From Dimorphilus gyrociliatus (taxonomy: Eukaryota; Animalia; Annelida): a DNA stretch of 64,000 bases. The position numbers were made by a program, and so were the translations under genes. The stretch is from positions 65,503-129,502 of the forward strand of contig CAJFCJ010000040.1 of NCBI GenBank assembly GCA_904063045.1. The letters are read 5' to 3'. Below the pieces are notes generated by a model. That model ran no database searches, was not told the DNA's origin, and saw only the letters and a program-made list of their open reading frames with translations. This document shows, one piece after another, positions 11,093 through 64,000 of this stretch. Each line of letters begins with the position of its first letter. The stretch's first letter is position 1.

Positions 11093-11133
11093 AATAATAT
11101 TTCTTTCTTCAAGTGATATCAACAAGTTTTTTA

Positions 11134-11173
11134 ACACACACACACACACCTATATATATATATATATATATAT
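11134..11173. repeat. (AC)n(AT)n compound microsatellite
   Basis: Direct reading of the sequence. Confidence 0.95.
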
Positions 11174-17189: not shown

Positions 17190-17322
17190 TCAAATAAATT
17201 CAAAGTTTTACCAGTACTTCCATCTGGAATTTGGTTTAGGCATGTTTGTATTATTGGTAATTGTTTTGTCCAATCTGTCAATTGTTCCAAAACTACATGT
17301 TTATACAGTGCTCTACAGAAAG
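17190..17322 (-). mobile_element. Integrase fragment of the main Gypsy family
   Basis: RALYKHVVLEQLTDWTKQLPIIQTCLNQIP matches RALHKHVVMEQLTDWTRQLPLIQTCL in the 62323-63024 ORF. Confidence 0.9.
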
Positions 17323-19248: not shown

Positions 19249-19629
19249 AATTACCATGTATGTAACTGCCAGTGACTGTTTACTTTTTATGATATTCGTC
19301 CTCACATTCTACACCAATTAGAGGGTAATCTATCAAGTAACCGCAGGTATAATAGTCAATTAGCTACCTCTCAACACATGTAACATAGGAAGACCTAGAT
19401 TCAATTCTATGTTCCTTCCTATGTACATATGTAGCCCATCCTAATTTCATGATGCAGCCCAGAGCCATATTCATTACTGCACCATGAAATTCCACTGAAT
19501 CTAAGGCAAGGGGTGATTTCACCTCCAATTTGGACTTGGAATATTTTTGAAAAAATGTTTATTCCTGCTACAGGTATTATTCACCTGTTGAAATTTTTCT
19601 AAGTCCAATACCTAACAATATCACAACAA

Positions 19630-22600
19630 TATCACAAATTACTTGAACTGATTTTAGTTTTGTGCATGTGTTGAGTGTTGTTAGATCACCCAGCCAGGTG
19701 CTATGAGTTGCTTGTGTTGGATCCAGTATTGTTGGAAGTTGAGGTACCAAGGTGTAAGTAAAGCAACCATCTTATTTCTCATAATGAACTCCTTGCATAA
19801 AAGTTGAGATATTTGTTTGAATACAGTTTGTAGATTTTGGAAATTCTTGTTAATATTATTAAGTAAGAGAGATGTTCTAACAGCATTATCAATGTCCAAT
19901 TTATGGTATTTTGGTGGTGTTTCCATTGTGTGTTTATCTATATATTATTTGGGAACAACAGGAATACATTGCAAGAGTGTGAATTTTCCATTTGCTTTCA
20001 TTACTTCAAATTGATTGCCTGTTGGACTTTCATACCAAACATTTAATTTTGGTAATGGGTTGAAAGTGATTTCTTTGTGTTTCAATTTGAATTCTTTTAG
20101 TCTGATTCTTACTGTAGGTTTTAATTTGGAATTATTCAGCATTGTCAGAATGTAATTGTTATCAATATCCCAAATGTCTGGCGAAATAATTTCATTCAAA
20201 ATATATGTTTTTACTAATGTATTTTGTTGTATTGTAATTGTACAAATATCTCGTTCGCCACAACAGTATTGGTCCTGTTCAATCATTGGTCAACTCACCA
20301 AAGTACTGGTCCAAATAGAACCTTTGAAGTTTGTCCACAAAGTAGCCTCAATAAATGTAATTTAGGTAGAAATTAATCAACAAAATGCCAGTTCATCATC
20401 CAAAGAATATGTATTGAGTAAATGAGTTTCTAGTTCTAAACAAGTAAGCTTAAACAGCTAGCTAACAGTTGAAGAACTGAACTGCCAAGCTGGGAAATGT
20501 ATTTCCTTTTATACATTTACCAAAGCTTGGGTTCAATTTGTCAAAAGAGTAAAATAAAAAGTGAAATGCAACAAAAACATTAAAGATTGTTATAATTCCT
20601 ACAAAATAGAGGTTATTCTACAATTTCTTTAAACCTAAAGTCTAAATATCAATATGTTATTATATCTAAGTGTACAACTAATGATATTGATTGGGTTCTT
20701 AGCAACATGTGATACTTTCTATCACCTTCTCTACACTAATCATTATAAGTTACAATATTTTCTTTATCTGTTTCATTTGCATTTCTCAGAAGTTATTTCT
20801 TTTTTCCTGTGTAATTTTCCAATCTTGTTGCCTCAATATTAAAAATAACTTGAAATTTTTGGTTTATTAGCATTTTCCTGACTGCATAGTTTGACTCTTG
20901 AAGATCTGTTCTAAATACATCCATTGCTTTTTGTGGAACTAATACTCTTGTTCCTGGTCCTCCATATCCTCTTATGTATCTGTCTTGATATGGAAGATCC
21001 ATAATTGCATAATTTGGGCTTGAAAAGTATCCTCCTAGCTTAATGCATTCTATATTTTTTGCCACAGCTTTCCAAGGTGAGGTATGGCCAAGAAGGTGTT
21101 GTCCTTTCTTTGGATTAAATATAATAATTGAGTCCAGTGTTCTACAGAATTTATGTTTTATAGAACAGTCTTCCATATATTCCAAATTTGTAGTTATTTT
21201 ATCTCGGCTGGGCTGCCAATAAGCTTTACCAATTTGTAATATTGTTGTGAATTCTTCAACAACTGTTGTTCTTGGTCATTTGTAATATGGTCCCTTGTTT
21301 TCATCAAACACCAGAAGTTTTCCTTTCTGAAGAAGTTTTTGTCCCTTAAGAGTTTTCTCAGAATAAAGCATTCTTCTACATAGTTTTTCAGTTAAGCTAA
21401 GTGTTTGTTTTTCAATTCTGTGCTTTTTTGCCCCAAAGAAGTAATATGTATAAAAGTTGATTCTTCTTTTCGCCATACACTTAACTGCTTGAATTGCTAA
21501 ATTGTCAGCATTAATTTCATACACATTAGCCATAATTTTGATCATTTGTTTGGTTTCAAAGGTACAAATGGGTTCATCTGCTAAATCAAATGATTGATGT
21601 ACTTGTTGTCCTTGGCAAAACAGTACTGCTAGTAGCATTCTTACAGTTATGTTTGCTTTTGTTATGGATACATTTGCTTGAACCAAGTTTAAAGAACAGA
21701 TTACTAGCAAAGTGTAGATTATAGATCCTCTGATAGGAAGTGTTTGACCAGATCTTTGTTGCTTTTCTACTTTAATTGCATTAACTGCTATAGGTTGTTT
21801 GTTAGCTAGTCTTAATCTACTGGCATGATAGAATTTCCTTTTATCTGCCAATATTTCCAATTCCTATAAACATTTTGTAGTATCAGTAGCAGTTTCCAGG
21901 TATGGTCCATTCCATTTGCTTGTATTTATTCTGTTCATTCCTTGACCAATGTATTCATTTCTTATGTGTACCCAGTTATCCACTTTGTAAATTAGTGGTT
22001 TTCTGGTAATTGTTTTATTGACTCTATCTCTATATTTCTTCTTTGGTCTGTGAGAATTTCTTCTGGAATACCAAACATTGGGAAATAATTAAAAAACAAA
22101 TGTTTTGAGATTTCCTCAGCTGCTTGAGTTTTTAGAGGAAAAACATTGGTAAATCTTGACATGTGATCTATAATGACAAGCATGTACTTGTAAGAATCAT
22201 GTCCAGTAAGAGGTCCCATTATGTCCATGGCAATTCTTTGCATTGGTAGAGTTGGATGAGGTGTTTCAACCAACAAATGTTTGTTACTTGGTGCACATAA
22301 CTGTTTACAAAATTAACAATTTTTTATGTGATCTTTAACTGTTTTCTTTAGCTTAGGATGCCAAAATGCTTGTTCCAAAGTATGAATAGTTATATCAACA
22401 CCATAGGGTTAAAATAGTTGGTGTTGGTGAATTTGTCCAAGTAGGTTAGTTAAAGTTGAGAAAGGAATTACAAGTAGTGGTTGACAACCATTTAGATACC
22501 ATATTAAGTCATCTTTCACGAACATCCCTTAAATGTAATTTTTATATTCATTCAATGAGTCATCCTCAATATTTTCTCCTTCCAATTTATCTACTGCTTT

Positions 22601-23141
22601 CATTAATGGAGTGTCTAGTAATTGTTCTTTATAAAAGTTTATTTCAACTGGTGCAACTTTTAGTTTCATTATTTGAGCTTGATGTTCTTTTAATTCTTCA
22701 TCAAAATCATTATCTAAATTATCATTCAAATAATCATCCAATTCTTCTAAATCTTCAGTGTCAATATAAAAACATTTAAGCATATCCTTTCTTTCTGCTA
22801 ATTGGGGAACTGTATTGCCATTTTGTTTCTCTTCATTTAACCTCTCCTTAAGTAAATTTTGAAAATCAATTACTTCATTAGTTTCTCCAATTTTTGATAT
22901 TTTGAATTTTTGTTACTTCTTCCTGGTATGTAAATTATTTCAAAATCCATATCCATAAGTGCCATAACCCATTTAACAGTACTTGAATTTAATTTGTTTT
23001 GTACAAATGTTTGACCCAAATTTTTGTGATCAGTATAAAGAAAAAATTTCTTATAATGCAAGTAATGGGAGAATTTTTGAACTGCCCAATAGACAGCAAA
23101 AGCTTCTTTTTGGTAGGCTGCATATCTTAGTTGTGTGTTAA
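19630..23141 (-). mobile_element. Degenerate internal region of the Gypsy family (RNase H, integrase, env-like) with nested LTRs
   Basis: Protein segments closely match those of the 57556-64000 copy (INTQLRYAAYQKEAF, IAMDIMGP, ILADKRKFYHASRL, env N-terminus). Stops, frameshifts and an internal deletion are present. Confidence 0.95.
20218..20676 (-). mobile_element. Solo LTR (type A, internally deleted) inserted into env of the same family
   Basis: Termini TGTACACTTAGA...AAAATACA; perfect 5-bp TSD ACTAA on both sides; env-like sequence resumes across it. Confidence 0.92.
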
Positions 23142-23661
23142 TGTACACTTACACATAATGACATATTGATATTTAGACTTTAGGTATAAATCAACTTTAG
23201 AATAACTTCTGTTTCATGGGAATTATAATGGTGGAACTTTATAAAGTCTTTTATTTTGTAGAATAAGATTCTAGAACTTTAGAAAGAACTCTATTTCATA
23301 GGAAATAGATTCTTTGCCCATGTTAGATGGAGCCACTATGCATTTAACAAAGGAACAAAGAACACAGAAAAGATGCATGTCAAATTTGTTACATTTTAGG
23401 CAATACCAGATGCTACCTAAGCAGGCCTGTGCTGCAGTGGCACATGTTGGCCATGTGGTGTTCATCTCATCATTGTATTCTATATGTGTGATATAATAGT
23501 CTTTCATATTTTTGTTACTTGTCGATTATGAGACTGCTATATTTTGCCCTCCTAATCCTTTGACCAATTGTACCCAAGCTTTGGGAAATGTATAAAAGGA
23601 AATACATTTCCCAGCTTGTCAGTTCAGTTCTGTAACCATTAGCTGGCTGTTTAAACTTACT
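23142..23661 (+). mobile_element. 3'-truncated LTR (type A) abutting the RNase H remnant in opposite orientation
   Basis: Starts TGTACACTTAC and is colinear with LTR 55521-56259 through the TATA box region. Confidence 0.9.
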
Positions 23662-28060: not shown

Positions 28061-28091
28061 TTTTATGATACAGGTGACATACTTTTTGGAT

Positions 28092-28299
28092 GGGATCAAC
28101 AGAAAACGGCCCCAAGTAGGATATTTGAAGGCAGCATTTTGGGTTAAGAAATGGTTAGGAGGAAACAAGCATTTATTGATTTGTAGTTAGGGGGCTCCTA
28201 TCTAAGGGTTAGGAGTAATGAAAAAGGGTAAGGGATACATTAGGGATGGTTTAGGGTTAGGGTAAAACCATACTTTTGGGGCCATTTTCTGTCGTATCC
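28092..28299 (-). mobile_element. MITE with TTAGGG-like interior
   Basis: Termini GGGATCAACAGAAAACGGCCCC and GGGGCCATTTTCTGTCGTATCC; imperfect 8-9-bp flanking duplication (TTTTTGGAT/TATTTGGAC). Confidence 0.85.
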
Positions 28300-37597: not shown

Positions 37598-37831
37598 ATT
37601 ACTCCTAAAATGTCAAATAATATTATTTAGACAGTGAAAAAATTAAGCGATACTGATAATTCAATATGTAGACAATCAAATTTTATTGAATTTAATTTTA
37701 GCTTCTTTCAAATTAATCAATATAATTTTGCTACTTTTAATGAAAATATTTCCACATTAACTCTACATAAAAACAACAGAGAAATACAAAATGAAAGTAT
37801 TTATTATCCAGTTATTTGTAGCTACGAAGAG

Positions 37832-38398
37832 AATAGACTCTTTGACAGTAACAGATAGTGGCTACTTGGGAATAAACAAAGGAACAAAGAACATGGAAAA
37901 GATGCATGTCAAACACCAGATGCTGATGAGGCAAGCCTGTTTGCTGTGGCACTTGTTTGGCATGTGGCTCTAATCTTAGAATTATATTTTATATGTGTCA
38001 TATAACAAGTCTTTTATATTTTTGTTACATGAGAATTATGGGACCATCAGATTTCAACTTTGTAATCCTTTGACCACTTGAACCCAAGCTTTGGCAAATG
38101 TATAAAAGGAACTGCATTTCCCCAGCTTGTCAGTTCAGTTCTTTAACCATTAACTGGTTTGCTTACACTTACTTGTTTAGATCTAGAAACTCATTTACTC
38201 AATACATATTCTTTAAATGAAATGCTGGTGTTTTGTTGATTAATTTCTACCAAAACTACATTTCTTAAGACTATTTGTGTAGGAACTTGAAAGGTTCTAT
38301 GTGATGTGAGTACTTTAGTAAGTTGATAAATGATTGGAAAGGATGAATACTGTTCTGAAGAAGCAGAAATTTCTACAATTGCAATACAACAAAGTACA
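37832..38398 (+). mobile_element. 5'-truncated LTR (type A)
   Basis: Colinear with 55695-56259 and ends ...CAACAAAGTACA. Confidence 0.92.
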
Positions 38399-39044: not shown

Positions 39045-42000
39045 ATGAGAAGTCATAAATTGATGATTTATTTTCTTTTGATTATTACATTGTTTTCTTG
39101 TTTTTATTACAACATTTATTCAAACGGACTGAATTCAGTAAGAGTTACTCAATTTGGGTAATGGAGATTTATCTCGGTTCATTTGACAAGTGACTATCTG
39201 ATTAAGGGTTAGGTAACCTCTTCATCCGTAACACTTATTCATTCTTTATAGATTTTCTTTAGTTGTTAGAGATGGTCAACTGTTTAGGTGAACTTGGATT
39301 ATTGCTCTATAATCTCTTGTTTTCTTAGCCGTCTCATTTCATCTCCTACCATTATTAACCTGTTTTTAAAAAGGTCATTATAACCTTGACATTAGATTAT
39401 TTTGCCATGTTTAACAAACAATGTTCAAAGATGTATTGCTATGGTATGCCTATTACGCTTAATGATGTAAAGATTACGAGTAATATGTCAACAACCTATG
39501 CAAGACAATTACTGAGTCTTGTCTGCAACAATATGAATTATGAAAAATATAATGTCAATGCTTACAGCAATAAAGATTTTAGTAAATAAAAACCTGTATT
39601 ATGTAATGCTTGTAAATATAAAAATGATATATTTATTTTTATTAGGCGCCAAAAAAGCTCAAATTATATTTTATAAGGAAGAGGAACACGAACTCCATTA
39701 CATACATCAGCTTACTAATCTTAATTTTCTTTTCTACATTAAATGCAGTTTATTGAATGCAACATGTGATTTTTTTCTTTTTTTGCTTATTCAAGCAACT
39801 TTTTAGAAAGTTTTGAATTTTTCTTTTTCAAGATTATTACACTTTTATTGAAGATGATGGAGCTACATCAGATGTTGTTGTTCCTATTTATGGAAGATTC
39901 AATGATATTTCAAAACCTTATTGTCTTTTTCGTAACAAATCAGTAAAGCATTGCAGTAATATTGTAAAATTTTCAAAACGGTTCATTCGTAATGAAGATA
40001 ATATGGACATTATTGATTTTAACTGGACAACAACACCAGAATGTTTAACTAACTTTTGCCAAATTTCTAATAATCCTACTATCAAATGGCTAAAAAAATT
40101 TCCTAGTTTTGATGGTCTTGTACCATTTACTAAACCAAATGATATTGATATGCTTATTCTACAAACATTCATGGGAAGACTACAAGTTGAGTATGATGGC
40201 TATTGGTATAATGTTTCTGGTTTTGATATTGATGCTAATGAAGTAAGGGTTATATGCCAATATTTCAATTTTAACAGTGGAACAATCAATCGACAAAGTA
40301 AAAATAGAATGAGTGATAGTTTTATCTTTTCACTTGACTGTTTAAGAAATGTCACAAATCTAAATCTATGTAATGTTACTAATTTTATGAAATTGTGGTT
40401 AGATGAAATTACTGGATTAGATATTGTTTGTTCTAAACAATTCATTCAATGTGATAATGATGATAATAGTCCTAACTCAAAAATTGGAAATTATTTAAAT
40501 AGTTGCTATTATTTATATAAAGTTAATGCAACTTTGTCACATAATCAAGGAAAATCCTTTTGTAATGTTAAGGGTAAAAATCTTATTGGAGTGTCTTCTC
40601 AAGACGAAGCTAGATTTATTGAAAATGCTTTAATATCTCTTCATTTTCGTAATTCTTCTGAGATGTCGATAAAAAAATTAATGGCTTTTAGTAATCAGTG
40701 GAAAATTCCAAATGGTTTGAAAAGAGAAAAACAAACAAACAAACTTTTTCATATTTTTTTAATTCTTCTAAGGTTTTCTACCTAATAAGAAACATATGGA
40801 AATATGATAACATCAGTCATCATTTTGCTGGTTTGTGGGGCATGAAATTTTGACAAAATTCAATGTAAACACAATTGACAAACAAACAAAAATCATTTTT
40901 TATTAAACATTTAAAACTAATCTTTGACAGGTGCATTTTGGAGCCTAATGAACCAAAACCTGAATTTTATAAAGAACCTTGCACTTATCTAAGGAAATAT
41001 GAAGAATTTGCCAACTATAACCAGTTGATATCGATACCTTGCGAACAAGAGATGTTTGATTATATTGTATGCGAAGAGAAAACTGGTAAACTGTACGGGA
41101 GTGTGCGAGAAAATGTATCAAGAACGTTTTTAATCTCTTGGTACATTTTCTCCCTATCCTATGTTAAAGAACTGAACAATACATCCAAAAAGCCTACTTG
41201 ATGCAAAAAAATAGATTTTTTAGATTTGAAAAGACTTAGAAGAGAAAATTTACGATTTATGACAAAACAACTCACAAAATTCAACAGCCATATAAAATAC
41301 ATCAATGATCCTAAAGTATTTTTTTGTAAAAGTTCCAATGAATTTATATCTTCATTGTTTAAATGTGATGGTCAAAAGGATTGTTTTGATGGTAGTGATG
41401 AAAAAAATTGTTCAACTGAACTTTCACTATTCAAATGCAATAATGGAACAAAAGCAATTAGTTTAAGTTTTCTGTGCAATTTCATCAACGATTGTTCAGA
41501 CAAAACTGATGAAATTCATTGTGGTAAAAAGAAAATGTTTTCTTTTTTAAAAGAAAGATTATTGTTCAAAATTTTTTTTTTTTAGATTTTCCATCATGCC
41601 CTTCCAAGTAAGAGAGAGAGGAGATTTTTGACTGATTCATTTAAAGTGGCTATATTAAAGGTTAACAAGATGTTAGCCTAGCCAGATTTTAATAAATTAG
41701 TACAAAAATCTACACACATTCATACATACACAAACGCAACAGCTATACATTTAATTTTCTCAATAGTTACAAAGCATGTAATAATCAACAGTGTATACCA
41801 GAGAAACAATTTTGCAACATGAAACATGATTGTTCAGATCACAGTGATGAGATAAATTGTTTTACAAAACTGCAATTTTATAGTAAAAAGAGTAAGAATA
41901 TTTATTCTACAAAGCAACATATGTAAAAAATTCCTTTTCCTTTTAACTCTAGACCTTCAAATTCACTATTGTAACTTCAAGTTCATTTCTTATAAAAAAG

Positions 42001-43134: not shown

Positions 43135-43323
43135 ATAAAAAATCCAATTTCAATTTCTAACCCTAACCCAGCCCTTGGCTGTACCTAACCTTTTTCATTA
43201 CCCCTAATCCTTAAAGGAGACCCTCCTAAGTACAAATCAGTTGCTGTCTTTTTCTTACTAACCATTTCTCAATTGAAAATCTTGTCTTGAAATTTATTAT
43301 TTGTGGACATTTTCTGTGGACCC
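43135..43323 (+). mobile_element. MITE, 5'-degenerate
   Basis: CCCTAA interior and right end GTGGACATTTTCTGTGGACCC. Confidence 0.75.
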
Positions 43324-43599
43324 CTTTTTTATTGCAGTCTGTAGTTGTAACTAAATATTTGGTACAATCTGAAAGTATTACACATTTTGCTCTATTTTTA
43401 AAATGGCCTAACTAATAATATTGATACTTTCCAAATATATTACTTAATCTGTAAACTTTCATTGTGAAAATTTTCACTTGGTTCTGTCAAGCCATTACAA
43501 AATTATTTTGGCTCAACAAGTCATGTCTACATATTCCAATCAGCAAAAAATTATTGCATTCTTAGTCCATGAGGAGGCCTCTGCAAAGAATATTCACAC

Positions 43600-44330: not shown

Positions 44331-45375
44331 TTTTCCAGCTCAAAAAGATAAATTAATCCTACATTCTTTTACAAGCAAATTTTCAAGTTCTTTTGTCAGT
44401 CAATTTAGGTTCAATGTTCAAGTTTTTTTGACTTTAGAACAATTTATCAGTAAATTCTTTAGCATCAAATTTTGTTCTTCATTCAAATCACAATTTCTAA
44501 TACAGACATTCTTTAGAGTATTGAATGATCTTTCAAGCCCCTTACAAATATGATAAAAACCATTTCTAGTTTAGAACAATTTCCCATAAGATTTCCTAAA
44601 TGTTTACCATGTTCTTCACTTAAATCACACTGTTATAACTCAAGATCTCTTAAATTATTTCATGATTTTTTGAGTCCTTGACAAATTTCAAAAAATCCAT
44701 TTCCCATGTTTGTATTGTCAGATAAAATTATTGTTTCAATTTTAGAACAACTCTTCAAAAAAATTCCTATCATTCTACTTTCTGTCTCATTTAAATTACA
44801 CAGTTGGAGATCAAGATTTTTTAAATTATTTGATGAATTTTCAAGGTATTGCAAAATATGGAACAATCCATTTCCCATGTCACCATTTTCAGATATATCT
44901 AAAGTTTGGGACAGGTCGAAAACAGCCATAAATGAAATATTTGAAAGTTAGATTTCAGCCTGGGAAATGGTTAGGAGGAATAAGATAACTGTTGATATGT
45001 TCTTAGGAGGGTCCCATCTAAGGGTTAGGGCTATTCAAAAAGGTTAGGCAAAAACAAGGACTGGGTTAGGGTTAGGATAAAACCATAGATTTATAGCCGT
45101 TTTCTGCCACATCCCTAAAGTTTCTAGTTTAGAGCAATTTTCAAGTAATTTTTCTATTTCTCTGCATTGTCCTTCTGGTAAAAATCACAATGGTAAAAAT
45201 AAAGATGTTTTAAAGCATCAGACAACGATTGCAGTGCAAGACAAATATAAGAAAAACTATTTCATATTTTACTACTGTCAGATAGATTGATCACTTCTAT
45301 TTTGGAGCAATTCTTAATAAGATTTTCTAAATAATTACATTGCTTTTCATTTAAATCACAAAATGACAAATCAAG
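44330..45375 (-). pseudogene. RNI-like LRR pseudogene, paralog of 9803-11092
   Basis: LDISENGDMGNGL...LKNLDLQLCNL...IILSDNTNMGNGFFEICQGL; in-frame stops and a MITE inserted in the coding sequence. Confidence 0.85.
44908..45115 (-). mobile_element. MITE with perfect 8-bp TSD
   Basis: GGG...CCC ends with TAAAGTTT on both sides (44900-44907 and 45116-45123). Confidence 0.9.
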
Positions 45376-46075: not shown

Positions 46076-46299
46076 TGATTGGATGGCAAAATAACACAAT
46101 AATGGTTCAATACTATTTATATATTACAGAATATAGTGGACAAATGTATGTGTACAGCATCAGTATTGAATAGTCTTGTTTTCAATTACAAAACATTTAT
46201 TGAAATTTTACATTACTAATATCTTCTTTTCATTTAAATAAATATTTTACTTTTTCCAGGTTATTCTGTTAACACTAAACAACTGGAGATTAGAATGTT

Positions 46300-46690
46300 A
46301 ATTAATTCTTTTAATTAGATAGTTGTTTATCTTTAAAGGTTTCAAAATATCATTTACATCAAGCAAACAACAAGAATTTTTATTTCTTTGTACAACACTT
46401 CCTTTCAACAAATTATTGTCAACTTCAATAGATGCCATTTCATTATTCAAATTATTATCTCTAATTTGAACTGCTTAATAGAATTTATATTGTTTCTTGC
46501 CAATATCACCAATCAGTCCACCCATTTCATTGTAATCTTTAGGCTCAACTCTCAAACCAACATCCAAATGCATTTCACCTAAAAAGTGATTAGATTTTTC
46601 AACAGCAACTGCAGTTGATGACTTTAATTCAGTGGAAACAATCTTTTGGCCATTTACAATTTCACACTTCACTTGATTAGTCTGCACAGT
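46300..46690 (-). pseudogene. 3' half of a paralog of the 49850-51450 gene, joined to a solo LTR
   Basis: QTNQVKCEIVNGQKIVSTELKS...EKSNHFLGEMHLDVG...GLIGDIG aligns with ORF 50947-51450. Confidence 0.9.
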
Positions 46691-47321
46691 TGTACTTTGT
46701 TGTATTGTAATTGTAGGAATTTCTGGTTTGTCATAACTGTAATCATCCTTTCCAATCATTTACCAACTTGCCAAAGTACTGGTCCAAATAGAACCTTTAA
46801 AGTTCGTCCACAAATAGTCCAACAAAGGCAATTTTGGTAGGAATTAATTAATAAAACACCAGTATTTCGTCCAAAGAATATGTATTGAGTAAAATGAGCT
46901 TCTAGTTCTAAACAAGCTAGTTTAAACAACTAGCTGACGGTTAGAAAAGTGAACTGTCAACTGTTAATTTTGTAGGGTTTATATACTCTTTTAAGGGTTG
47001 ATAGTTCACAAATTTCAATGTTCACAAAAACAAAAGTAACATTTTAAGACAAAGAAAAGTTCTAAATATGGTCATGTTTTTATTGTTTTCCTCTTCTAAA
47101 TAATAGTTGAATTTCGAGGGTTGGAGAGTTGCATAAGACATAACAATTTTAGTAGGACAAGTCCAACAATCAAGAAAACATGTAGATTGTATATTTGACC
47201 ATTTTTATATTCTACCTTAATAATGATATTTAATTGATTGAGTTAGTAAATTTAGCATCAGCATATAAGGATGAAGTATATCTGATTAATGCATGTTAAG
47301 AAGAACAGTATTGTGTATACA
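46691..47321 (-). mobile_element. Solo LTR type B (631 bp)
   Basis: TGTATACAC...AAAGTACA, nearly identical to 57556-58186; the flanks (ACAGT/ATTGT) do not form a clean TSD. Confidence 0.95.
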
Positions 47322-49849: not shown

Positions 49850-51450
49850 ATGAAGGCGTTTACAATACATAACTTTGCTCTTCTTTTTCTGAGTTTTGGT
49901 TGTATGATTTTTAGATTATTTTTAATATCAAAGCAAATTAATATATTTTTATTTATTTACAGTAATTACAGTTCATTCAGACAGTTTTAGTCTGAAAGTT
50001 GAATCTCCAGCTCAAATTTTGGAAGATAGTAGTAGTTACAACCTTTATTTCCAACAAATCACTGGAACTCCTACTTGCAGGTATCTTTTACATTAACATT
50101 CAAATCAGGAATCTATCAATTTAATTTGTTTTACAGCTATACACTTACAAAACCAGATGGAACCATTTTACTACAATCCTCAAAATCAGTAAATTCTGCA
50201 CTTGTATATGAAAATTTCCAAGGCAGTTTGTTTTCAGGAACAACTGAGAATTATGTACTGACCTACACTTATTCATGTACCAGTGGAGGGACTACACTTG
50301 AATTTGAAGTTAGAGGATATGTTTATTCACGTGAACGTATGTATTATCAATATTCATTTTCAAGTCCATTTGTGATGTTTTTGATGTTTCATTAGAATAT
50401 GGTAGTGGTAATCTACCTATGGGCTATGGTATTGAAATTGAGATGTCAACTGAGCAAACTTCACCAATTAGAGTCAGAATTCAAGGTGGTAGTGGTGGTG
50501 GCTCATGCAGGTAATTAGTACAATGACAGTCAAATTTTGCAACATCAATTAATGTCTACTTTTGTCTACTTTAGCATAACTCGACCAGACACTTCTATAG
50601 CTACAGTAGATAATGTTGGACCACTTTCAATTGGGCAAGATTCATTGGATATTACAGTTACTAAAACTGGTTCCCAAGAGTCCTTTTTCATAGCTGCAAG
50701 TTGCATATCAAATGGAAAAACATTCCAAAATGAAATTCCAGTTTACTTTTCACCCAATGCTCCTTCACCATGGGCATCTGCAACTGGAGATCCACACTTT
50801 GCACAAAATGTTGTTGACAAATCAACTATGTCTACTAAACAAATATGTTATGATGTAACTGGGAAAATGGGAGATTATATATATATATTGCTGGATTTTC
50901 TCACAGTAGAATAAAGATTTTTGGCCAACTGAAAGATGATTACTATATGCATAAAATTGTCATTCAATCTCCATCTGCCAACATCACAGTATCATTAAAG
51001 GATATTCATCTTGGCCAAAAAGATACCATTCAATGGAATGAAAACTCAAAGCAAATGACTTTGCAAACTAATCAATTGAAATGTGAAATTGTAAATGGGA
51101 AAAAGATTATTTTCACTGAATTAAAGTCATTAAATGCAATTGCTGTTGAGAAATCTAAGCATTTTTTAGGGGAAATGCACCTGGATGTAGGCTTTAGGCT
51201 TATGCCTGAAGATTACAATGAAATGAGTGGACTAATTGGAGATATTGGCCAGAAAAAATTTAAATTCTTCACAGCAGTTCAAATTGGAGAAGATAGTTTA
51301 AACAATGAAATGGTTTCTATTCAAGTTGACAACAAATTTTTGAGAGGAAGTGTTGTACAAAGAAATAAAAAGTCTTGTTGGTTGCTTGATGTAAATGACA
51401 TTTTGAAACCTTTGAAAACAACTGACTATCTTTTCAAAAGAATTGATTAA
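49850..51450 (+). CDS. Secreted protein with two beta-rich modules, a GDPH motif and an ITI-heavy-chain-C-like domain; one frameshift near 50905
   Basis: Signal MKAFTIHNFALLFLSF|VITVHS across an in-phase intron; introns 50081-50136 and others restore the frame; ATGDPHF...ICYDVTG...GQLKDDYY...GLIG. Confidence 0.75.
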
Positions 51451-51744
51451 CATTCAAATTAAATATAATATTTACAATTTATATTTTACGATTTACAGAA
51501 GGTAAACCAAACTATTGAGTTAAGTAATACTGTTTCCTAAATTTTGTATATGACATTTGCCTAATGAAAAACAATCTATAATGTAAACAATATATTTTAT
51601 GGAATGTATGAAGGCATAAATACAGACTAACTTTTTGAATTGGACATGAAATAATCTTACAAAAAACAATAATGTATTCTTAATAATTCATATATTTAAA
51701 AGAATGATAACATTATGTAAGTGGATACAACATAAAACATCCCT

Positions 51745-51865
51745 AAATGCATAGTCTAACCCTAACCCTAACTAAGTCCTTGTCACTCCTGAACATTTTT
51801 GATTACCCTGACCCTTAGATGGAACCCCCCTAACTACAAATCAAAGTCTACTTCACTTGTCCTAT
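51745..51865 (+). mobile_element. MITE fragment with CCCTAA repeats
   Basis: AACCCTAACCCTAAC...TTAGATGGAACCCCCTAACTACAAATCAAAG matches 860-960. Confidence 0.8.
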
Positions 51866-52185: not shown

Positions 52186-52342
52186 GATCTTAGAGCAAGA
52201 AACTGTTGGAGCTGATGGAAAGAAAACCAAGAGACCAGTTTCATTTGCATCAAAATTACTTATCAATTCACAGCTCAAGTATGCTGCATATCAAAAAGAA
52301 ACTTTTGCTGTTTATTGGGCAATACAGAAGTTTTCACATTAA
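52186..52342 (+). mobile_element. RNase H fragment of the Gypsy family
   Basis: LEQE...RPVSFASKLLINSQLKYAAYQKETFAVYWAIQKFSH. Confidence 0.9.
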
Positions 52343-52529
52343 AGAATAAGAAAACATAACATTTGAAATGTAGAGAAGAATAGAGAAGAACTGAAGTAAA
52401 TCATTTGATTTATGAAAGGACAGTTGACCCTTTTTTTTTGGGGTCAACTGTCTGGATTTTTTTTCTTTTGAATTCAAACTATCACATTCTCTTTTTAGTG
52501 AACCAGGCTAAAATCTACCCAAACCCTTT

Positions 52530-53090
52530 TGTTATTTATAGCTTACCGCAAGAACTTTCATCATCCCCTTCTAAGCAATGTCTTATACCATCACAAACCT
52601 GATCAATATAAATACAATAATTGAATTTTTTACACTTGAACTGTCCACATTTACATTGATGACTTTCCATACAAAACTTTAACTCATTGAAGGGTGGATT
52701 CATTTTTGTTAATAGATAATTTGCTGAGTTATATTTCAATAAACAGCTGTTATTGCTTTTATGCTTTGAATTATAAATCAATTCTTCAGAAAATGAAGTT
52801 TTGTTCAAGATACTTATAAGTAATTCTCTGAAATTACAAAATTCTTCATCTTCAGTAGTTGGACAATCAACTTTAAAATTGCATTCGTAAAATTTTGGAA
52901 TACAATGAGTATTTGAGCATTTAAGCTGTTTTTTGCCACAACCAACTGCAGATACAGATAATAATCGAATTAGTGCAGATATTGGAATATTTAGTTTGTT
53001 TTGTTCTTTTTACAAACTATGATAACAATCTTCATTGCTATAATCTATACAGTCTCCATTGTTGTCACAAAACTTTTCAGTTCTAATACA
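52530..53090 (-). pseudogene. LDLa-rich fragment of a GRL101-like gene
   Basis: CKCGQFKCKKFNYCIYIDQVCDGIRHCLEGDDESSC parallels exons of genes 1 and 2. Confidence 0.75.
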
Positions 53091-53094
53091 CTGG

Positions 53095-54533
53095 TGATTG
53101 GAGCAACATGTTGCTAAAAACCCAATCAACACCAATAGTAAAAACACTTATTTCACCTGATATTTGGGATATAGATAACAATGCTGAAAAATTCCAAATT
53201 GAAATCTACTGCAAGATTCAGACTAGATGATTCAGATTGAAGCACAAAGAAATCACTTTCAACCCATTACCAAAATTAAATATGTGGTATGTAAGTCCAA
53301 CAGGGAACCAATTTCAAACAGTGAAACAAATGGGAAATTTACACTCTTACAGTATAACCCTGATATTGCTAAAAGGAAAGTGGAGGAAAACATGATTGAA
53401 AACACACCACAATTCCAGAAAGTGGACATTGAAAATGCAGTTAGAACATCTGCCTTACTTGGAAACATTAATAAGAACTTTCAAAACTTACAAACTGTAT
53501 TTAAACAAATATCTCAACTTTTATACAATGAGTTTATTGTGAGAAATAAGATGGTTGCATTGCCTACACCTTTGGCATCCCAACTTCCAATAATACTGAA
53601 TCCAACACAAGGAACTCACAGCACCTGACAACACTCAACACATGCACAGAACTAAAATCAGTTCAAGTCATTTGTGACATTGGAATCATAACAAAAAATG
53701 GATTGTGTTCTAAACAATTCCTCATCAAGCATAAAGGATTTCAATTTTCAATTGATCCAATACTACACCATGCCTACCACATAACAAAAGAAGATATAAG
53801 ATATAGGGAATGTGATCAAACACAATATCTCTTTAAAATAAAAAAGAACCCTTTGGATGCTGAAAGGAATCATAATGGAATATCTTCTGGAAGGAAAACT
53901 TTTATCTACTATACAAAGAATGGTTGTAAATTCCCAACAGCTGCTACCAGGTCAATCAGAATGAAAATCAACAATGAAATTGAAGAACCAAAACTGGAAG
54001 TTTCAAGGCTCACTGAGTTACTACAATTAGGTATAAACAATGAAGTTGGCAAAAAACACCAACAGTTCCAACAAGTCATTGACTATATACAAGACACTTT
54101 AACAAGGCAAAACAAGCATATCAACTTTGCTTATAAATTAGGAATTGATTCAAGTATGTCTACACAGCAACACTTATTTTCATCATGGCTAAAAACTCCA
54201 ACCAAAATGCTGAATAACATTGCTTTTCCAACAATAATTATTATTGGCATTGCATTCATACTATGGTTGGCATATAAAAGAAAATTTAGCAAAACTTACT
54301 AGGAAAAGACTTTGGAAATACTTGGAAAGAAAGAATGCCCAAGCCACAGCTCCAGATATTCAACAAGAGGAACTACATGTGCCAACATACTCAACTTTAG
54401 AAATTGACCAAGAAGCAATACCTCTTCAAAACTACCCAACTTTTAAGAAAGAAGATAACAGAGTCATAGTGACAAGTCCCAGACCTTTCGTGGAAGCAAG
54501 GTCTTAAAAGGGTGGGATATCTGTGCACTTAGA
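53095..54533 (+). mobile_element. 3' end of a Gypsy copy: env C-terminal half, polypurine tract and first 12 nt of the 3' LTR
   Basis: Homologous to 19630-20700; TM helix IAFPTIIIIGIAFILWLAY; tail with YSTL and YPTF; AAAAGGGTGGGA at 54506-54517 followed by TGTGCACTTAGA at 54522. Confidence 0.9.
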
Positions 54534-54550
54534 AATAATAACGTAATAAT

Positions 54551-55520: not shown

Positions 55521-56259
55521 TGTGCACTTAGATATAAGGGTACATTAGAAAGACTTCTATTTTATAGGAATTAGACTGATGCAACTATAGAAATACTTAT
55601 ATTTCGTAGGAATTATAGTGGTGGAACTTTAGAAAGACTTTTATTTCATAGAGTTAGCTTTTAGTACTTTAGAAAGAACTCTATTTCGTAAGAAATAGAC
55701 TCTTTGACTGTAACAGATGGTGGCTACTTGGGGAATTAACAAAGGAACAAAGAACATGGAAAAGATGCAGGTCAAACACCAGATGCTGATGAGACAGGCC
55801 TGTTTGCTGTGGCACATGTTTGGCATGTGGCCCTAATCTTAGGATTATATTTTATATGTGTGATATAACAAGTCTTTCATATTTTTGTTACATGAGAATT
55901 ATGAGACCATCAGATTTCAACTTTGTAATCCTTTGACCACTTGAACCCAAGCTTTGGAAAATGTATAAAAGGAAATGCATTTCCTCAGCTTGTCAGTTCA
56001 GTTCTTTAACCGTTAACTGGTTGTTTAAACTTACTTGTTTAGAACTAGAAACTCATTTACTCAATACATATTCTTTGGACGAAATACTGGTATTTTGTTG
56101 AATTAGTTCTACCGAAATTACATTTGTTAAGACTATTTGTGGACAAACTTGAAAGGTTCTAATTGGACCAGTACTTTGGTAAATTGATAAATGATTGGAA
56201 AGGACGAATACTGTTCTGAAGAAGCAGAAATTCCTACAATTACAATACAAAAAAGTACA
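55521..56259 (+). mobile_element. Solo LTR type A (739 bp)
   Basis: TGTGCACTTAGA...AAAAGTACA; perfect 5-bp TSD AAAAC; TATAAAA at 55964. Confidence 0.95.
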
Positions 56260-57555
56260 AAAACAAAGATTATTAACCTTAACATGTGCTTGTAAATACT
56301 TTTAACTATACACAAATATAAGAATTGTTTTTCTATTCTTCCCTTTATGTTTATCATAAAATAATCACACTACTACTTCCCAATCACAGATGTGCTTCTA
56401 TTACTTTTTTATAATTTACTAGCTTTCTATTCTACAATACAACTATAGTTGTATATTAATCAGTACTTTTAATAATATCTTATAGAGTTAGGAAATGAAA
56501 GAAGCATAAAAAAGAAGTGTCATACACGCAAGAAGATCCACCTTCAGAACCTAGAATTTCAATTGCTACATATGTCCCTTCTTCAAATGGTCTATTTCCA
56601 AGTACTGTCAATACTGTTCCTAGGGCTGTTATATCTCCAATATCTGAAAGAATAAGGTCTTTAGAAAGTTGTATTATATTGGGAAAATGAAAAGTATTTA
56701 GAGAGAAAACAAAAATGCTAAAAAAAAAACAAATTCATTATTGCTTTGCTCTGATCATTTGACTTCTAATCTAAAAAAAGAAAATTGATTTATATACAAT
56801 ATTTTTCAGGCCAAATACAGGCACACATATTTGATATAGCAATATACAAATATTCTTTTATTATTGTATTGTGATTGCAAGCATTTCATTCTGAACCAAA
56901 GTAAAATTGTATTTTTGTAATTGTCAGTGTACTTTGTTGTATCTTGATCATAGGAATTTCGTGAAATGTAACAATTTTGGTAACATTAAATTCAAGCATT
57001 GAAAGAGAGAAATTGGAACAATGAATAACTCAAACCTAATCAAATTGGATATATGAATGTTCTAGATATTATTTCTTCAACATCTTAAGAGTATTTTATG
57101 TTACTGGACCAAATATTCAAATTGATTGCCCTATTGATATATTGTGTAAGGCATTTCTACCTGCTCTGCTTTTTCAGAGTTTTTCTATAATTTATATTTA
57201 TGAAACATTCCGAGAATTGTATTCTAGAGAATTAAAAAGAACATCAGTAGTTGTACACATACATTCGTCAGCTATATTCTACAATAGAGAAGTAGTATTG
57301 AACCAGTATTGTACTATGCAGATAGCACTGATAAAGATAAGCAGTAGTGACCTAGTTTCGCATAGGGCAGTGCATACACATTATGCAGCAATAAAACCTA
57401 TTGAATTATATAAAGAATATTTGCTATTTGCAACCTAGCATTAATATTACAATTTATTAATCCATAAATTTATGATTTCAAACTAAAACTAGTTCAATTA
57501 ATTATCAATTATGCTTAAATTCTAAGTTTAGATTATATTCACTATTCAACAGTAT

Positions 57556-58186
57556 TGTATACACAATACTGTTCTTTTTAACATGCATTAATCAGATATA
57601 CTTCCTCCTTATATGCTGATGCTAAATTTACTAACTCAATCAATTGAATATCATTATTAAGGTAGAATATAAAAATGGTCAAATATACAATATACATGTT
57701 TTCTTGATTGTTGGACTTGTCCTACTAAAATTGTTACATCTTATGCAACTCTCCAACCCTCGAAATTCAACTATTATTTAGAAGAGGAAAACAAGAAAAA
57801 CATGACCATATTTACAACTTTTCTTTGTCTTCAAATGTTACTTTTGTTTTTGTGAACATTGAAATTTGTGAACTATCAACCCTTAAAAGAGTATATAAAC
57901 CCTACAAAATTAACAGTTGATAGTTCAGTTTTCTAACTGTCAGCTAGTTGTTTAAACTAGCTTGTTTAGAACTAGAAGCTCATTTTACTCAATACATATT
58001 CTTTGGACGAAATACTGGTGTTTTGTTAATTAATTTCTACCGAAATTGCCTTTGTTAGACTATTTGTGGACGAACTTTAAAGGCTCTATTTGTGTGAGTA
58101 CTTTGGCAAGTTGGTAAATGATTGGAAAGGACAATTACAGTTGTGACGAACCAGAAATTCCTACAATTACAATACAACAAAGTACA
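57556..58186 (+). mobile_element. 5' LTR type B (631 bp)
   Basis: TG...CA termini; TATATAAA at 57892; matches solo LTR 46691-47321. Confidence 0.95.
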
Positions 58187-61100
58187 AATATGGCGCAGTC
58201 AACAGCCCACAATGCTACTTCAATGAATGTTATTTTGGTTTATGAGAATGACAAAGCCAGAGCCAAAGAAGTAGATGAATATCTTTCAAAAATTAATGAA
58301 TTAATGTTGAGAATTAAAAGTAGTGGAGCCAAAGTTGATGGTAATAGCTTTTTAAAGTACCATTTGATGACTGGGGCAGCTACAATTCCTGAAGGTATGG
58401 TTAATCCTGATCCTACTCAACCAAAATTCAGTTATGATGGCATTCAAGATAATGCTTTGGAAAAGACAATTGCAAGTCTTCTAATTGATGCTAATGAGAA
58501 ACCTAATACTACTTTGCTGAGACCCTATTCTGGTAGCAAAGATACTTGGGCCTTTAAGAGGAACTTTCAAACAGCTTGTGAATTAAACCTTTGGGATACA
58601 GAAGAGAAAAGAGTTCGAATGATGAGAAAATACACTACTGGAAGAGCCAGAGATGTTATTGAAAGTTTACCCTCCATGGCAAATGAAAATGAAATTTGGG
58701 ATGCATTGGATGAAGAATTTAATCCAGATCCTATGGCTTACAAAAAAGAAATTGATAGATTGAGACAGTTCAATGATGAAACTGTCCAAAGTTTTGTTAG
58801 AAGAAGTAAAGAACTTGTAGAAAAATTCCTACCATTCAATACTACTGTAATGGCTTGTGTTACTGAAAGAGTTAGAGAACTTCAACTGTTAACTGTATTC
58901 AGGAATGGTCTTAAAGGAAAAATTGTTAATCATGTGGAAAAAGATGGAGAGATTAACTCAGTTAATCAGTATATTAAATTGGCAAAAAGAGCAGAAATAT
59001 TTTTTGATAATGCAAGAAAAGAAAGTGAAAATGAATTCAAACAGTACAAAAGGAGATTTGACAACAATCAGAGTAACTCAAATCAAAATGAACATACATT
59101 TAAACCTTTTTCTCAAAATAGATTTCAACAACAAAGAAATGGAAATGCAGGAAATAATGAAAAAGGCAGCTTTAACAGACTAATACATGTTGGACCTGAT
59201 GAACCTAATGAAACTGAAATTTCTAAAGGAAGAATGGCAATATTTAATCTCAAAGAAGAGAAAATCGCACATTTTAAGTGTACTTCTTTGGTGAAAGGCA
59301 GAAAAGATTTCCAATTTCAAATGAAAAATCATAATGGAAGAGAGGTTATTGCTTTATGTGATTCAGGAGCACTTTTGTCATTTATTACAGAAAAAGAAAT
59401 CAGGTTAATGGATTCTAAATTCATCAAGAAAGAAACTACTGGCTTACCAATCATCACTTCAGCAGAGGGAAATGCCTTAAAGACAAAAGGAAAAGCAAAA
59501 CTGAATATTCAATTTAATGGAAGAATTATGGAACAAGAATTTTTTATTATGGAAAAACTAGATATGGCTATAATACTTGGTTGTGATTTCTTAGAAAATG
59601 CTGGAGCTCTTATTGATTTTGCAACAAAACAAGTTTCTCTTCCATTCTTTATCAGAAAAGGACAACCAGTTAGAAAGTTTTTGCAATATAATGAAAATCA
59701 CCAAACAAAATTTGGAAAACAAGGCAGTTTAAAAAAAGTAACTGTTGGAATGATGGGACAGTATTTTGAAGATTCTGACACTCCATCTGAAGTTTTTGAT
59801 ACTCCATCTGAAGTTTCAGATAGTGTGGACTCAGAAATGGAAGTTACTGATCCAGATACTGGCTATGATACAAGCAACACTCATGGTTCAAGCATAGTTT
59901 ATGAGGGATTCAATGGTTTTGATTCAAATAGCAATTATGGCACAGATGAAAGTTCCAGTACTTCTGAAAATTATGATACAGAAACAAGTACTGAATCAGA
60001 TCACAGCCCAGACTCAGATTTGGATATAATCAATGGTACAAGCTCATCTGAAGATGAAATTAGTGATTCAACTGAATCTGATAATGGTTCAATGATTGTT
60101 ATAGACTCATCTGAGGAAGAGCTTGATAACATAACTGAGCCTGATAATGATTCAATGATTGTTATAGACTCATCTGAAGAAGAGACCAGTAACACAATTG
60201 AGTCTGACAATGATTCCATAATGGTTATAGACTCATCTGATGAAGAGACTGGAAATATACCTAAGTCTGACAATGACTCAGTTATTCTTATAAATTCCTC
60301 TGAAGAAGAAACTGAAGACTTGGCTATGGAAATGGAAATTAAACCACAATACATAGAATTAGAAGATGGAATAACTATCAAAGTGGAAAAAGAACAAAAG
60401 AAAAATCCAGTAACTCCTGAAATAGAAGAATTACAGTTGGAAAGTATTGAATTTGAACATTTGTCTAATCAAAATGTACACAATATTAATTCAAATACAC
60501 TAGAAATTGACAATTATTTACATGTGTCCAAAAATAATCTTGACAAGAACAGAGAAGAATTAAAAAAAATGATAAAGAATTATGAAGATATTATTGCTAC
60601 AAATCAGAATGACATTGGTTCACCAGATGTTCCACCAATGGCAATTGAATTATTGGAAGATATAAAGCCTTTCAAACAAAGACCATACAGATTGCCACCC
60701 AACAAACAGCAGGAATGCAGGGATCAATTAAATGGATTATTGGAAAATGGTCTAATTAGAGCAAGCAAAAGCCAATGGGCTTCACCCATTGTTTTTGTGA
60801 AAAAGAAAGAAGGAACATTAAGAATGTGTGTGGATTACAGAAAACTTAACAAGCAATCAAAAAAGAATTGTTATCCAATCCCACATCAGGAAGATTTATT
60901 TGATAAGCTTGGAGGAGGCCACAAATATTTTTCTATATTGGATTTAACAAGTGCATTTCATCATATTCCAATTAAAGAAGAAGATAAGGAGAAAACTGCT
61001 TTTATTACACCATTTGGTTTATTTGAATTCAACCGCATGCCATTTGGTTTGGCTAATGCACCTTCACACTTCAGCTATATCATGGCAAATTTTGTTATTA

Positions 61101-63460
61101 ATGGATTGGAAAACTTCTGCATTAATTATATGGATGATATTATAGTTTTTACCAAAACATTGGAAGAACACTTTGTAGCTCTACAGAAACTTATGGAAAG
61201 AATCAAGGAAAAAGACTTTAGAATTAAACTGAGCAAATGTGCATTCTTACAAGAATCAGTTCAATTCCTTGGTGATAGAATTACACAGAATGGTATTGAA
61301 ACTGATCCTGAAAAGATTCAGAAAATAAAAGATGCCAAATTACCTATGTTTGCAAATACTCTGTTGAGTTTTGTGGCATTTTGTGGTTATTATAGAAGAT
61401 TTGTTAAAGATTTTGCAAAAATCACAAAACCTTTGAGAGAATTATTAAAAGTACACCAAAAGACAGAAAAACTGAAATGGACAAAAAAAGCAGAGGAAGC
61501 TTATGAAACACTAAGGAATGCAATGACAGAGCCCCCAATCCTTCAACTGCCAGACTTTACTAAATCATTCTATTTAACAACAGATGCTTCTAATTATGCA
61601 GTTGGTGCAGTTCTAGAACAAGAATGGGAAGAAGATGGAAAGAAAATAAGAAAACCAATTTCTTTTGCTTCCAAGCTCCTAATCAATACACAACTAAGAT
61701 ATGCAGCTTATCAAAAAGAGGCTTTTGCAGTATATTGGGCAGTACAAAAATTCTCCCATTATCTACAGTATAAGAAATTTTTTCTCTACACTGATCACCA
61801 AAATTTGGTACAAACATTTGTACAAAACAAACTGAATACAAGTACTGTTAAATGGGTGATGGCACTTATGGATATGGATTTTGAAATAATATACATACCA
61901 GGAAGAACTAATAGAGCAGACTGGATATCAAGAATTGGTGAAACTGATGAAGTAATTGATTTTCGTAATTTACTTAAGGAAAGATTAAATGAAGAAAAAC
62001 AAAATGGCAATACAGTTCCCCAATTAGCAGAAAGAAAGGATATGCTTAAATGCTTTTATATTGATACAGAGGACTTAGAAGAATTAGATGATTGTTTAGA
62101 TGACAATCTAGACAATGATTATGATGAAGACATAACTGAAATCCAAGCCCAGATTATGAAACTAAAAATCACACCAGTTGAAATAAACTTCTATAGAGAA
62201 CAAGTATTAGATACTCCACTAATGAAAGTTGTAGACAAATTGGAAGGAGAAAACATTGATAATGGGTCTTTGAATGAATATGGAAACTTTATTGAATCTA
62301 TGTTTGTAAAAGAAGATCTTGTATGGTATCTAAATGGCTGTCAACCACTACTTGTAATTCCACTATCAACTCTAACCAACTTACTTGGACAAATTCATCA
62401 ACATCAACTATTGAGCACTATGGTGTAGACATAACAATTCACACTTTGGAGCAAGCTTTCTGGCACCCCAAGCTAAAGAAAACAATTAAAGATCACATAA
62501 AGAGTTGTGAATTTTGTGAGCAATTAAGAGCACCAGGCAACAAACATCTGTTGGTTGAAACACCTCACCCAACTTTACCAATGCAAAGAATAGCTATGGA
62601 CATAATGGGACCTCTGACTGGACATGATTCTTACAAGTATATACTTGTCATTATAGACCACATGTCCAGATTTACCAACATATTCCCTCTAAAAACTCAA
62701 ACAGCTGAGGAGATTTCTAAACATTTGTTTTTCAACTATTTCCCAATATTTGGTATCCCAGAAGAAATTCTCACAGATCAAGGAAGGAATTTTCTTGGTG
62801 AAATCTTTACAGAAATGGTGACATCAATGGGAATACGAAAAATTAAAACAACAGCATTCCATAGCCAAAGTAATGGAATGGTAGAAAGAAAGAATTTGGA
62901 AATTCGTAGAGCACTACATAAACATGTAGTTATGGAACAATTGACAGATTGGACAAGACAGTTACCATTAATTCAGACATGTTTAATCAAATTCCAGTTG
63001 GAAGCACTGGCAAAACCCACATGAAATATTATTTGGATTGAAGAATAGAAATGTTTTAGACCTGTTAATGGAAGTTCCAAGATTAGAACCAACAACAAAA
63101 TTCTTATTTGATAGAAAACATGAACTTGAAGAAATTAGAGCAACAGCACTTTGCAAATCTGTTCTAAAAAAGAAGGAATATAGAGATAGAGTTAATAAAG
63201 CTATTACAAGAAACCTCCAACTTACAAAATTGGTGATTGGGTACACATAAGAAATGAAAACATTGGTCAAGGAATGAACAGAATAAATACAAGCAAATGG
63301 AGTGGACCATATCTTGTAACTGCTACAGATACTACAAAATGTTTGTATGAATTACAAATATTGGCAGATAAAAGAAAATTCTATCATGCTAGTAGACTAA
63401 GACTAGCTAACAAACAACCTATAACAGTTAACACAGTGACAGTAAGGAAACACAAACAAA
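58118..63460 (+). CDS. gag-pol: Gag-Pol polyprotein, single frame to 62428; integrase broken by 1-nt shifts near 62417 and 62985
   Basis: 1436-aa ORF containing a capsid-like region (no CCHC knuckle seen), PR, an acidic spacer, RT and RNase H. Integrase continues in ORFs 62323-63024 and 63274-63492. Confidence 0.95.
58191..58202 (+). promoter_or_regulatory. Primer-binding site, probably tRNA-Ser, overlapping an in-frame ATG at 58190
   Basis: TGGCGCAGTC lies 4 nt after the LTR end and is complementary to a tRNA 3' end ...GACUGCGCCA. The Ser assignment is from recall of tRNA-Ser acceptor stems. Confidence 0.7.
60017..60310 (+). repeat. 63-bp in-frame tandem repeat (4 units plus 1 degenerate) in the PR-RT spacer
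   Basis: Units start at 60080, 60143, 60206 and 60269, encoding MIVIDSSEEE, MIVIDSSEEE, IMVIDSSDEE and VILINSSEEE. Confidence 0.95.
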
Positions 63461-63467
63461 TGGTGGA

Positions 63468-64000
63468 ATGCTTCCTATCAGAGGATCAATAATTTATACA
63501 CTGTTAGCAATATGCTGTTTAAACTTGGTCCAAGCAAATGTATCCATAACAAAAGCAAACATAACTGTAAGAATGCTACCATCAGTACAGTTTTGTCAAG
63601 GACAACAAGTACACCAATCATTTGATTTAGCAGATGAACCAGTATGTACCTTTGAAACTAAACAAATGATCAAAATTGTAGCTAACATCTATGAAATTAA
63701 AGCTGACAATTTGGCAATTCAAGCTGTCAAGTGTTTAGTGAAAAGAAGAATCAATTTCTACACTCATTACTTTTTTGGAGCAAAGAAACACAGAATTGAA
63801 AAACAAAACTTGCCTTAAGTGAAAAACAATGCAGAACAATGCTATACACACACAAAACTTAAATGGACAAAACCTAATTGAAAAAGGCAAACTTTTCTTA
63901 TGTATATGAAAACAAAGGACCAAATTACAAATGGCCAAGACCACAGTGTGGAAGAATTTACAACAATCCTTCAAATTGGCAGGCTTATTGGAATCCAAGT
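63468..64000 (+). CDS. env: Env-like glycoprotein N-terminus (frameshifted, truncated by window edge)
   Basis: Signal-like IIYTLLAICCLNLVQA|NVS with NxS/T sites; C...YFFGAKK motif; homologous to 21276-21860. Confidence 0.85.

Follow-up and report, generated by a model that had tools for sequence, protein, structure and literature searches.

Ty3/gypsy retrotransposons with a gB-type envelope (env) gene are widespread across animal phyla, according to the part of Chary and Hayashi (2026, PMC13524379) consulted here. In the annelid Dimorphilus gyrociliatus, the commonest transposon of the genome is Dingle, a name that covers the Gypsy-like elements of the Dinophilidae (Martin-Duran et al. 2020, PMC7854359, consulted in part). 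An open reading frame (ORF) downstream of the Dingle integrase is reported there to match CMV and HSV-1 gB in HHpred (P>99) and is presented with a model. The 2026 table contains a single entry for the species, Dgyr_errantivirus_1, which is typed ENV_HSV, present in 7 copies, and labelled GAG-POL, with an LTR at 1669-2299, a primer site at 2303, and a second LTR at 10348 (PMC13524379 suppl. 1). The classification of 32 gB-type Envs by cysteine bridges in the same source, as far as consulted, includes no annelid Env, and Dgyr_errantivirus_1 is absent from it.

Here, we analysed 64,000 nucleotides of D. gyrociliatus DNA (the window), an AT-rich animal sequence (GC 0.24-0.34) in which short-intron genes lie among many fragments of one LTR family. 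An initial annotation had described a gypsy element with a class III fusogen-like envelope at 53095-54507 and proposed it as a candidate new endogenous retrovirus lineage. We conclude with high confidence that three broken copies of an env-bearing Ty3/gypsy element lie in the window, that the family is very likely the published Dingle, and that the predicted fold of its Env is class III, of the gB/G/gp64 type. The feature is real and the fold call was correct; the novelty fails, the element very likely having been described already as Dingle.

Three broken copies of an env-bearing Ty3/gypsy element

The Pfam domain order protease-RT-RNase H-integrase, by which Ty3/gypsy elements are recognized, was found in the window and bears out the element class first assigned. 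The three copies belong to different subfamilies: copy A is 80% identical to copy B and 83-86% identical to copy C at the nucleotide level. Copy C (plus strand) comprises an LTR that ends at 58186, a long gag-pol ORF, a broken integrase, and an ORF with a signal peptide; copy A (minus strand, 23142-19627) retains the last part of pol together with the 5' two thirds of the env ORF; and copy B holds the last part of env, followed by a purine tract and a 3' LTR stub (Table 1). TG..CA LTRs, a primer site after the 5' LTR, a purine tract before the 3' LTR, and a short target duplication were all seen in different copies; these structural features are pooled across copies, none of which has both LTRs inside the window. 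The env gene directly follows the integrase; in two subfamilies it is placed between the integrase and the purine tract.

Run X1 has contigs that differ from copy C at 22 of 3040 letters (99% identity over 3 kb), which fits copy C belonging to a young subfamily. Contigs of run X5, which carry neither strand nor level, have GT..AG joints over host genes and also include contigs on the element. Short fragments of pol and LTRs from this family also lie at 14390-14863, 17205-17316, and 52214-52353. At 59999-60313 (plus strand), acidic repeats of 63 bp separate protease from RT in the pol frame and encode four hydrophobic-then-acidic motifs, (V/I)(I/L)(D/N)SS(E/D)EE; the same acidic repeat is also present in the D. 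gyrociliatus protein DgyrCDS14407. We take these motifs to resemble SUMO-interacting motifs with CK2 sites.

Table 1. Features of the env-bearing element and its LTR family in the window
Feature	Position	Strand	Evidence
Copy C gag-protease-RT-RNase H ORF, 1436 aa	58118..62428	+	Pfam
Frame-broken integrase of copy C, with zinc finger, core, and C-terminal tail	62296..63489	+	Pfam
Start of copy C env (ATG and signal peptide), with frame breaks beyond 63815; truncated at the window end	63468..64000	+	
Copy A pol 3' end, internal deletion	21741..23142	-	
Copy A env 5' part (signal peptide, predicted fusion and PH-like domains), in-frame stops	20677..21740	-	
Copy A env middle to central helix, 80% identical to 53148-53682	19627..20212	-	
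Copy B env 3' part, a pseudogene with several frame breaks; spans the extra segment, central helix, beta region, anchor, and tail	53095..54507	+	
Predicted membrane anchor, 19 residues	54219..54275	+	mean hydropathy 2.4
Predicted cytoplasmic tail with YSTL and YPTF, frame other than anchor ORF	54298..54507	+	
Purine-rich tract and ~20 bp 3' LTR stub, like solo-LTR 5' end at 20676	54505..54545	+	compared by eye
Solo LTR, 459 bp, same family, inserted in copy A env, 5-bp target duplication	20218..20676	-	
Copy C 5' LTR, likely 935 bp; inner 631 bp (57556-58186, TGTA..TACA) occurs alone elsewhere	57252..58186	+	
Lone 631-bp LTR (96% identity to 57556-58186), lacking a clear target duplication	46691..47321	-	
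LTR piece, another subfamily (further pieces 37827-38398, 23142-23661)	55582..56259	+	
Primer-binding-site-like 12-mer, 4 nt after LTR, overlaps gag-frame ATG	58191..58202	+	

LTR forms and primer-binding site

The LTRs of 935, 631, and 459 bp have their 3' ~265 bp in common and differ in their 5' parts, and the 631-bp form begins at a short palindrome within the 935-bp form. The gag frame opens inside the LTR (58118-58202), and its second ATG overlaps the primer site, leaving almost no leader; the layout of Ty1 is similar. Priming of the window element by tRNA-Ser is likely. The primer 12-mer of the published entry, common to 26 of 1512 published elements and alone not specific, is typed tRNA-Ser in 25 insect elements and "others" for the worm entry (PMC13524379, consulted in part). 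A match to the 12-mer also arose in 34 of 100 shuffles.

Comparison with the published elements

The window pol is matched most closely by DgyrCDS14407, which is 84, 85, 93, and 96% identical to it in four ungapped blocks of 136-168 aa and is the top protein by single best alignment among the best 120 of 2612 RT matches. At its end, 64 residues are 73% identical to the C-terminal part of env, indicating that pol and this part of env are joined in another copy too. In an RT tree of 116 tips, as the initial annotation had proposed building, DgyrCDS14407 is sister to the window RT with support of 1.0 on a long stem and is its only close neighbour among the tips; the tree kept 115 of the 120 listed matches (5 were dropped for short cover) and contains no named reference elements, and it confers no clade name.

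Dingle and Dgyr_errantivirus_1 were compared with the window element by host, anatomy, and lengths, not by sequence. By description, Dingle agrees with it in host lineage, Ty3/gypsy pol, and a gB-like ORF after the integrase, with no difference shown in the part of the source consulted (PMC7854359). Dgyr_errantivirus_1 agrees in LTR length (630-631 versus 631 bp), in the gap before the primer site (4 versus 4 nt), and in the distance between LTRs (8049 versus 8074 nt, where the window's figure includes a 304-bp LTR extension as internal sequence and is a sum over pieces of three subfamilies). Its primer 12-mer is matched at 11 of 12 letters in the window and at 12 of 12 in contigs of all four runs compared, and both elements have a gB-type Env and fused gag-pol (PMC13524379, supplementary table). 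Subtracting 3000 from the end of the tabulated region (11589) gives a position at odds with an env stop beside the LTR; other rows of that table misfit likewise (PMC13524379, as far as consulted).

Dgyr_errantivirus_1 is listed with a chromodomain (PMC13524379, consulted in part), and none was found in the window element: Pfam Chromo had no match in the six pol stretches scanned, and the 97-aa integrase tail gave only a weak match to MLVIN_C, below cut-off (E = 0.006). This negative scan counts against exact identity with this entry and would fit another gB-type errantivirus in the genome: an env-bearing gypsy family so far undescribed and separate from the chromodomain-bearing entry. A comparison by description rather than sequence leaves room for such a family, as do the subfamilies, at least three and 80-86% alike, within the window. 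However, the published row is matched in LTR length, in the 4-nt gap, in the primer site, and in the distance between LTRs, the 2026 table has that one entry for the species (PMC13524379, consulted in part), and the name Dingle covers the gypsy-like elements of the genome (PMC7854359, likewise); we consider a second family improbable. The element is very likely Dingle/Dgyr_errantivirus_1, that is, a described env-bearing lineage with the same glycoprotein, the very finding that the initial annotation had named as decisive against a new lineage.

One env gene across three copies

The segments 63468-64000, 19630-21720, and 53095-54507 had been combined into a glycoprotein of roughly 800 aa. Both the join and the length hold: coordinate arithmetic over the three copies gives an env gene of 2475 nt (~825 codons). 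The join is real: copy A is split by a solo LTR with a 5-bp duplication, contigs bridge the site, and the natural relative P0004 matches both ends of env. In four contigs of run X5, 20212 adjoins 20677, with exactly the solo LTR and one target copy left out, and one X1 contig spans both halves with 736 letters in between.

A full-library search with the N-terminal part of env found 3 of 1.84 billion proteins (P0002, 47%; P0003, 24%; P0004, 25%), with P0004 at E = 3e-6 in that library. P0004 also matches the C-terminal part down to the anchor (pairwise E = 2e-9, 18% over 232 columns), and P0003 does so more weakly (E = 3e-5). Because P0004 matches both parts, the join is not a chance one. The helix piece alone gave no significant match (pairwise E = 0.72), although the window helix could be aligned. 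Word-indexed protein searches with the N-terminal part and with a 4-row profile returned no new relatives, and scans of viral and metagenome contigs yielded no confirmed locus.

All of the motifs first quoted are present, but they are spread over the three copies, and most lie outside 53095-54507. The signal peptide and KC..FY(T/H)YFFGAKK occur in copy C (from 63468, plus strand) and copy A (minus strand, ~21740-20796), whereas LCRRM, GPYYK..PRT, EDCSIKHKFCRTLDSIII, and the helix as quoted (..LLCKEFIMRNKM..) all come from copy A. The "(W)" in the quoted GPYYK motif is a stop codon in copy A, read as X. Copy B contains a diverged helix, a Cys-bearing beta region, the anchor, and the YSTL/YPTF tail in at least four frame pieces, and is a pseudogene. 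All env pieces in the window are pseudogenes, with stops or frame breaks in all three copies. The signal peptide and C-terminal anchor expected of a class III protein were both found, by hydropathy only, and the two tail motifs are present in the sequence, as initially described. Copies A and C frame env differently against the end of pol. The segment between the PH-like domain and the helix is ~200 residues long, versus ~30-100 in relatives (hand count); four pieces of it searched against Pfam gave nothing above cut-off.

Predicted class III fold of Env

For the N-terminal domains of Env, the class III assignment is well supported by predicted models and upholds the initial call. In the structure search that had been suggested as a check, predicted models matched G, gB, and gp64 folds. 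With the copy A N-terminal model (5-row alignment; mean pLDDT 55, with approximately residues 70-250 mostly at 60-85), class III fusogens took ranks 1-11 of 48,161 chains (Z 8.7-4.5; next row, Z 3.3). The top matches were Chandipura G (Z 8.7, rmsd 7.7, 181 aligned) and HSV-1 gB (Z 8.4, rmsd 7.3, 183 aligned), followed by CMV gB (Z 7.8), thogotovirus GP, rabies G, and gp64. In the predicted model, a PH-like domain encloses an elongated fusion domain that carries two loops; the models are of weak quality overall, the Z-scores are middling, with rmsd of 5-8 A, and the match covers the N-terminal ~190 residues only. The model of the relative P0003, which shares its alignment with the copy A model and is thus not independent of it, matched gB (E = 1.6e-8) and lyssavirus G (E = 1.6e-7) in the PDB, and class III proteins took ranks 1-5 in a separate structure ranking. 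Of the long central helix and beta crown domain also expected of class III fusogens, this model shows helices (309-340 and 345-370) at low pLDDT (~45).

The likeness to rhabdovirus G in particular, also proposed initially, stands in part. For the copy A model G gave the top Z-score, and P0003 exceeds the Pfam threshold for Rhabdo_glycop_FD (25.6 bits against 22; P0002 is below cut-off, and P0004 has no match). However, vesiculovirus G and HSV-1 gB are tied, at Z 8.7 versus 8.4 for the copy A model and 7.8 versus 8.1 for the model of the relative. An atlas search with P0004 gave Monjiviricetes_fusion clusters in 19 of 30 matches (top, 0.96), a lead only, with recognition at 1417, below the mark of 2300; the same search with a window env piece gave no usable match. 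The window env pieces matched no fusogen family above cut-off in Pfam and had 0 matches by sequence in the PDB. An Env of the baculovirus-F type (class I) was set aside: it appeared neither among the Pfam matches nor in the fold searches, and the class III match was positive.

Selection and proposed function

Between copies A and C, the N-terminal part of env has a dN/dS of 0.12 (0.05-0.22) over 113 codons, compared with 0.06, 0.07, 0.13, and 0.29 for four pol blocks and 0.55-1.06, with wide intervals, for LTR pseudo-codons; codons with stops were skipped. Two middle env blocks (A versus B) gave 0.36 (0.17-0.75) and 0.79 (0.21-3.7). The low N-terminal value therefore indicates that selection kept the fusion domain while the subfamilies diverged, and this part of env was constrained about as strongly as pol. 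That Env is an inert passenger, or the fossil of a separately inserted RNA-virus glycoprotein, rather than a working part of the element would suit the broken state of every env piece in the window and the negative-strand RNA virus glycoproteins at the top of the structural matches, but it is highly improbable given the placement of env, which two subfamilies carry between the integrase and the purine tract, the contrast in dN/dS with the LTR pseudo-codons, and the link of pol to the env C-terminal part in DgyrCDS14407.

In the predicted architecture of Env, a PH-like domain encloses the fusion domain, which bears two hydrophobic loops; a long helix, an anchor, and a tail follow. By analogy with class III proteins and Drosophila errantiviruses, Env would be made via the secretory pathway and would trimerise, and the two tyrosine motifs may sort it to sites of particle budding. 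Env alone could then fuse particle and target membranes, probably in acidic endosomes, and such fusion might carry the element from one cell to another and into the germ line.

Other features of the window

A ~990-bp MITE-like element at 18264-19252 is bounded by 181-bp inverted repeats that are 98% identical. Dispersed ~200-bp repeats, unrelated to the LTRs, occur at 825-1047, 28090-28299, 32931-33127, 43157-43333, 44918-45114, and 51722-51857. Pieces of LDLa/LRR/7TM receptor genes from at least two paralogues (Pfam 7tm_1, LRR_8, and Ldl_recept_a) lie at 1998-4326, 30793-32348, and 52536-53009, and Pfam identified two leucine-rich-repeat ORFs and one SRCR-domain ORF at 4961-5809, 9803-11149, and 39817-40785. 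A spliced host gene at 49859-51644 has GT..AG introns of 55-65 nt in contigs of run X5; an inverted copy of its last part (85% identical) lies at 46289-46690, and the lone LTR cuts this copy.

Discussion

This analysis confirms a published element. It adds independent structural support for the class III assignment and purifying selection on env, and it describes the self-insertion of a solo LTR, LTRs in long and short forms, and probable priming by tRNA-Ser.

Other gypsy polyproteins among the RT matches carry sequence relatives of this Env. Among 124 proteins, P0109, P0111, and P0095 matched the 4-row Env profile (E = 4e-14, 5e-12, and 1e-9 across the three; next, 0.34), and P0111 passes Pfam Monjiviricetes_fusion PF24664 (63 bits, cut-off 27). 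All three have cysteines, the FFG loop, and the second loop in common with the window Env, and these shared features, with the profile matches, place it within the known gypsy-borne class III set. Their RTs, in contrast, are distant from that of the window (tree distance, 1.7-2.0), and P0111 and P0095 carry env before pol, whereas the window element carries it after the integrase. P0109 (residues 1095-1277) has the order RT-RH-IN-chromo-like-protease-like-class III env, an unusual place for the protease; its chromo and protease Pfam matches are weak.

We also considered whether the Dingle Env was captured separately from a nyamivirus-like, negative-strand RNA virus infecting annelids, not drawn from an ancient gB-type pool, and then gained the ~200-residue domain, possibly setting cell tropism. 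Against predicted viral structures, both models ranked G of Beihai rhabdo-like virus 3 (Berhavirus sipunculi, Nyamiviridae) first, and for the P0003 model rank 2 was also a nyamivirus and rank 3 Midway nyavirus. The name Berhavirus sipunculi points to peanut worms, which are annelids, and the Dingle entry is the only gB-type one among the 45 annelid rows listed in the consulted part of PMC13524379. However, the E-value margins of the top match are 4-fold and 100-fold, the two models share an alignment, the structure library holds no retrotransposon Env, and the other gypsy Envs are detectable sequence relatives. A separate capture therefore seems unlikely, and the narrow nyamivirus top ranks of the predicted models do not resolve the closest class III family. 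No literature linking nyamivirus glycoproteins with retrotransposon envelopes was found by title or abstract start. If true, such a capture would name a donor virus family and be a counter-example to the view that gB-type gypsy envelopes are ancient and rarely reacquired (PMC13524379, consulted in part).

By comparison with viral glycoproteins, the window Env is 9-16% identical to Mononegavirales G and herpesvirus gB, among which no single family stands out. At this low identity, the G proteins of Nyamiviridae and Rhabdoviridae and herpesvirus gB have, by structure search of the predicted models, the same class III fusion and PH-like domains as the window Env.
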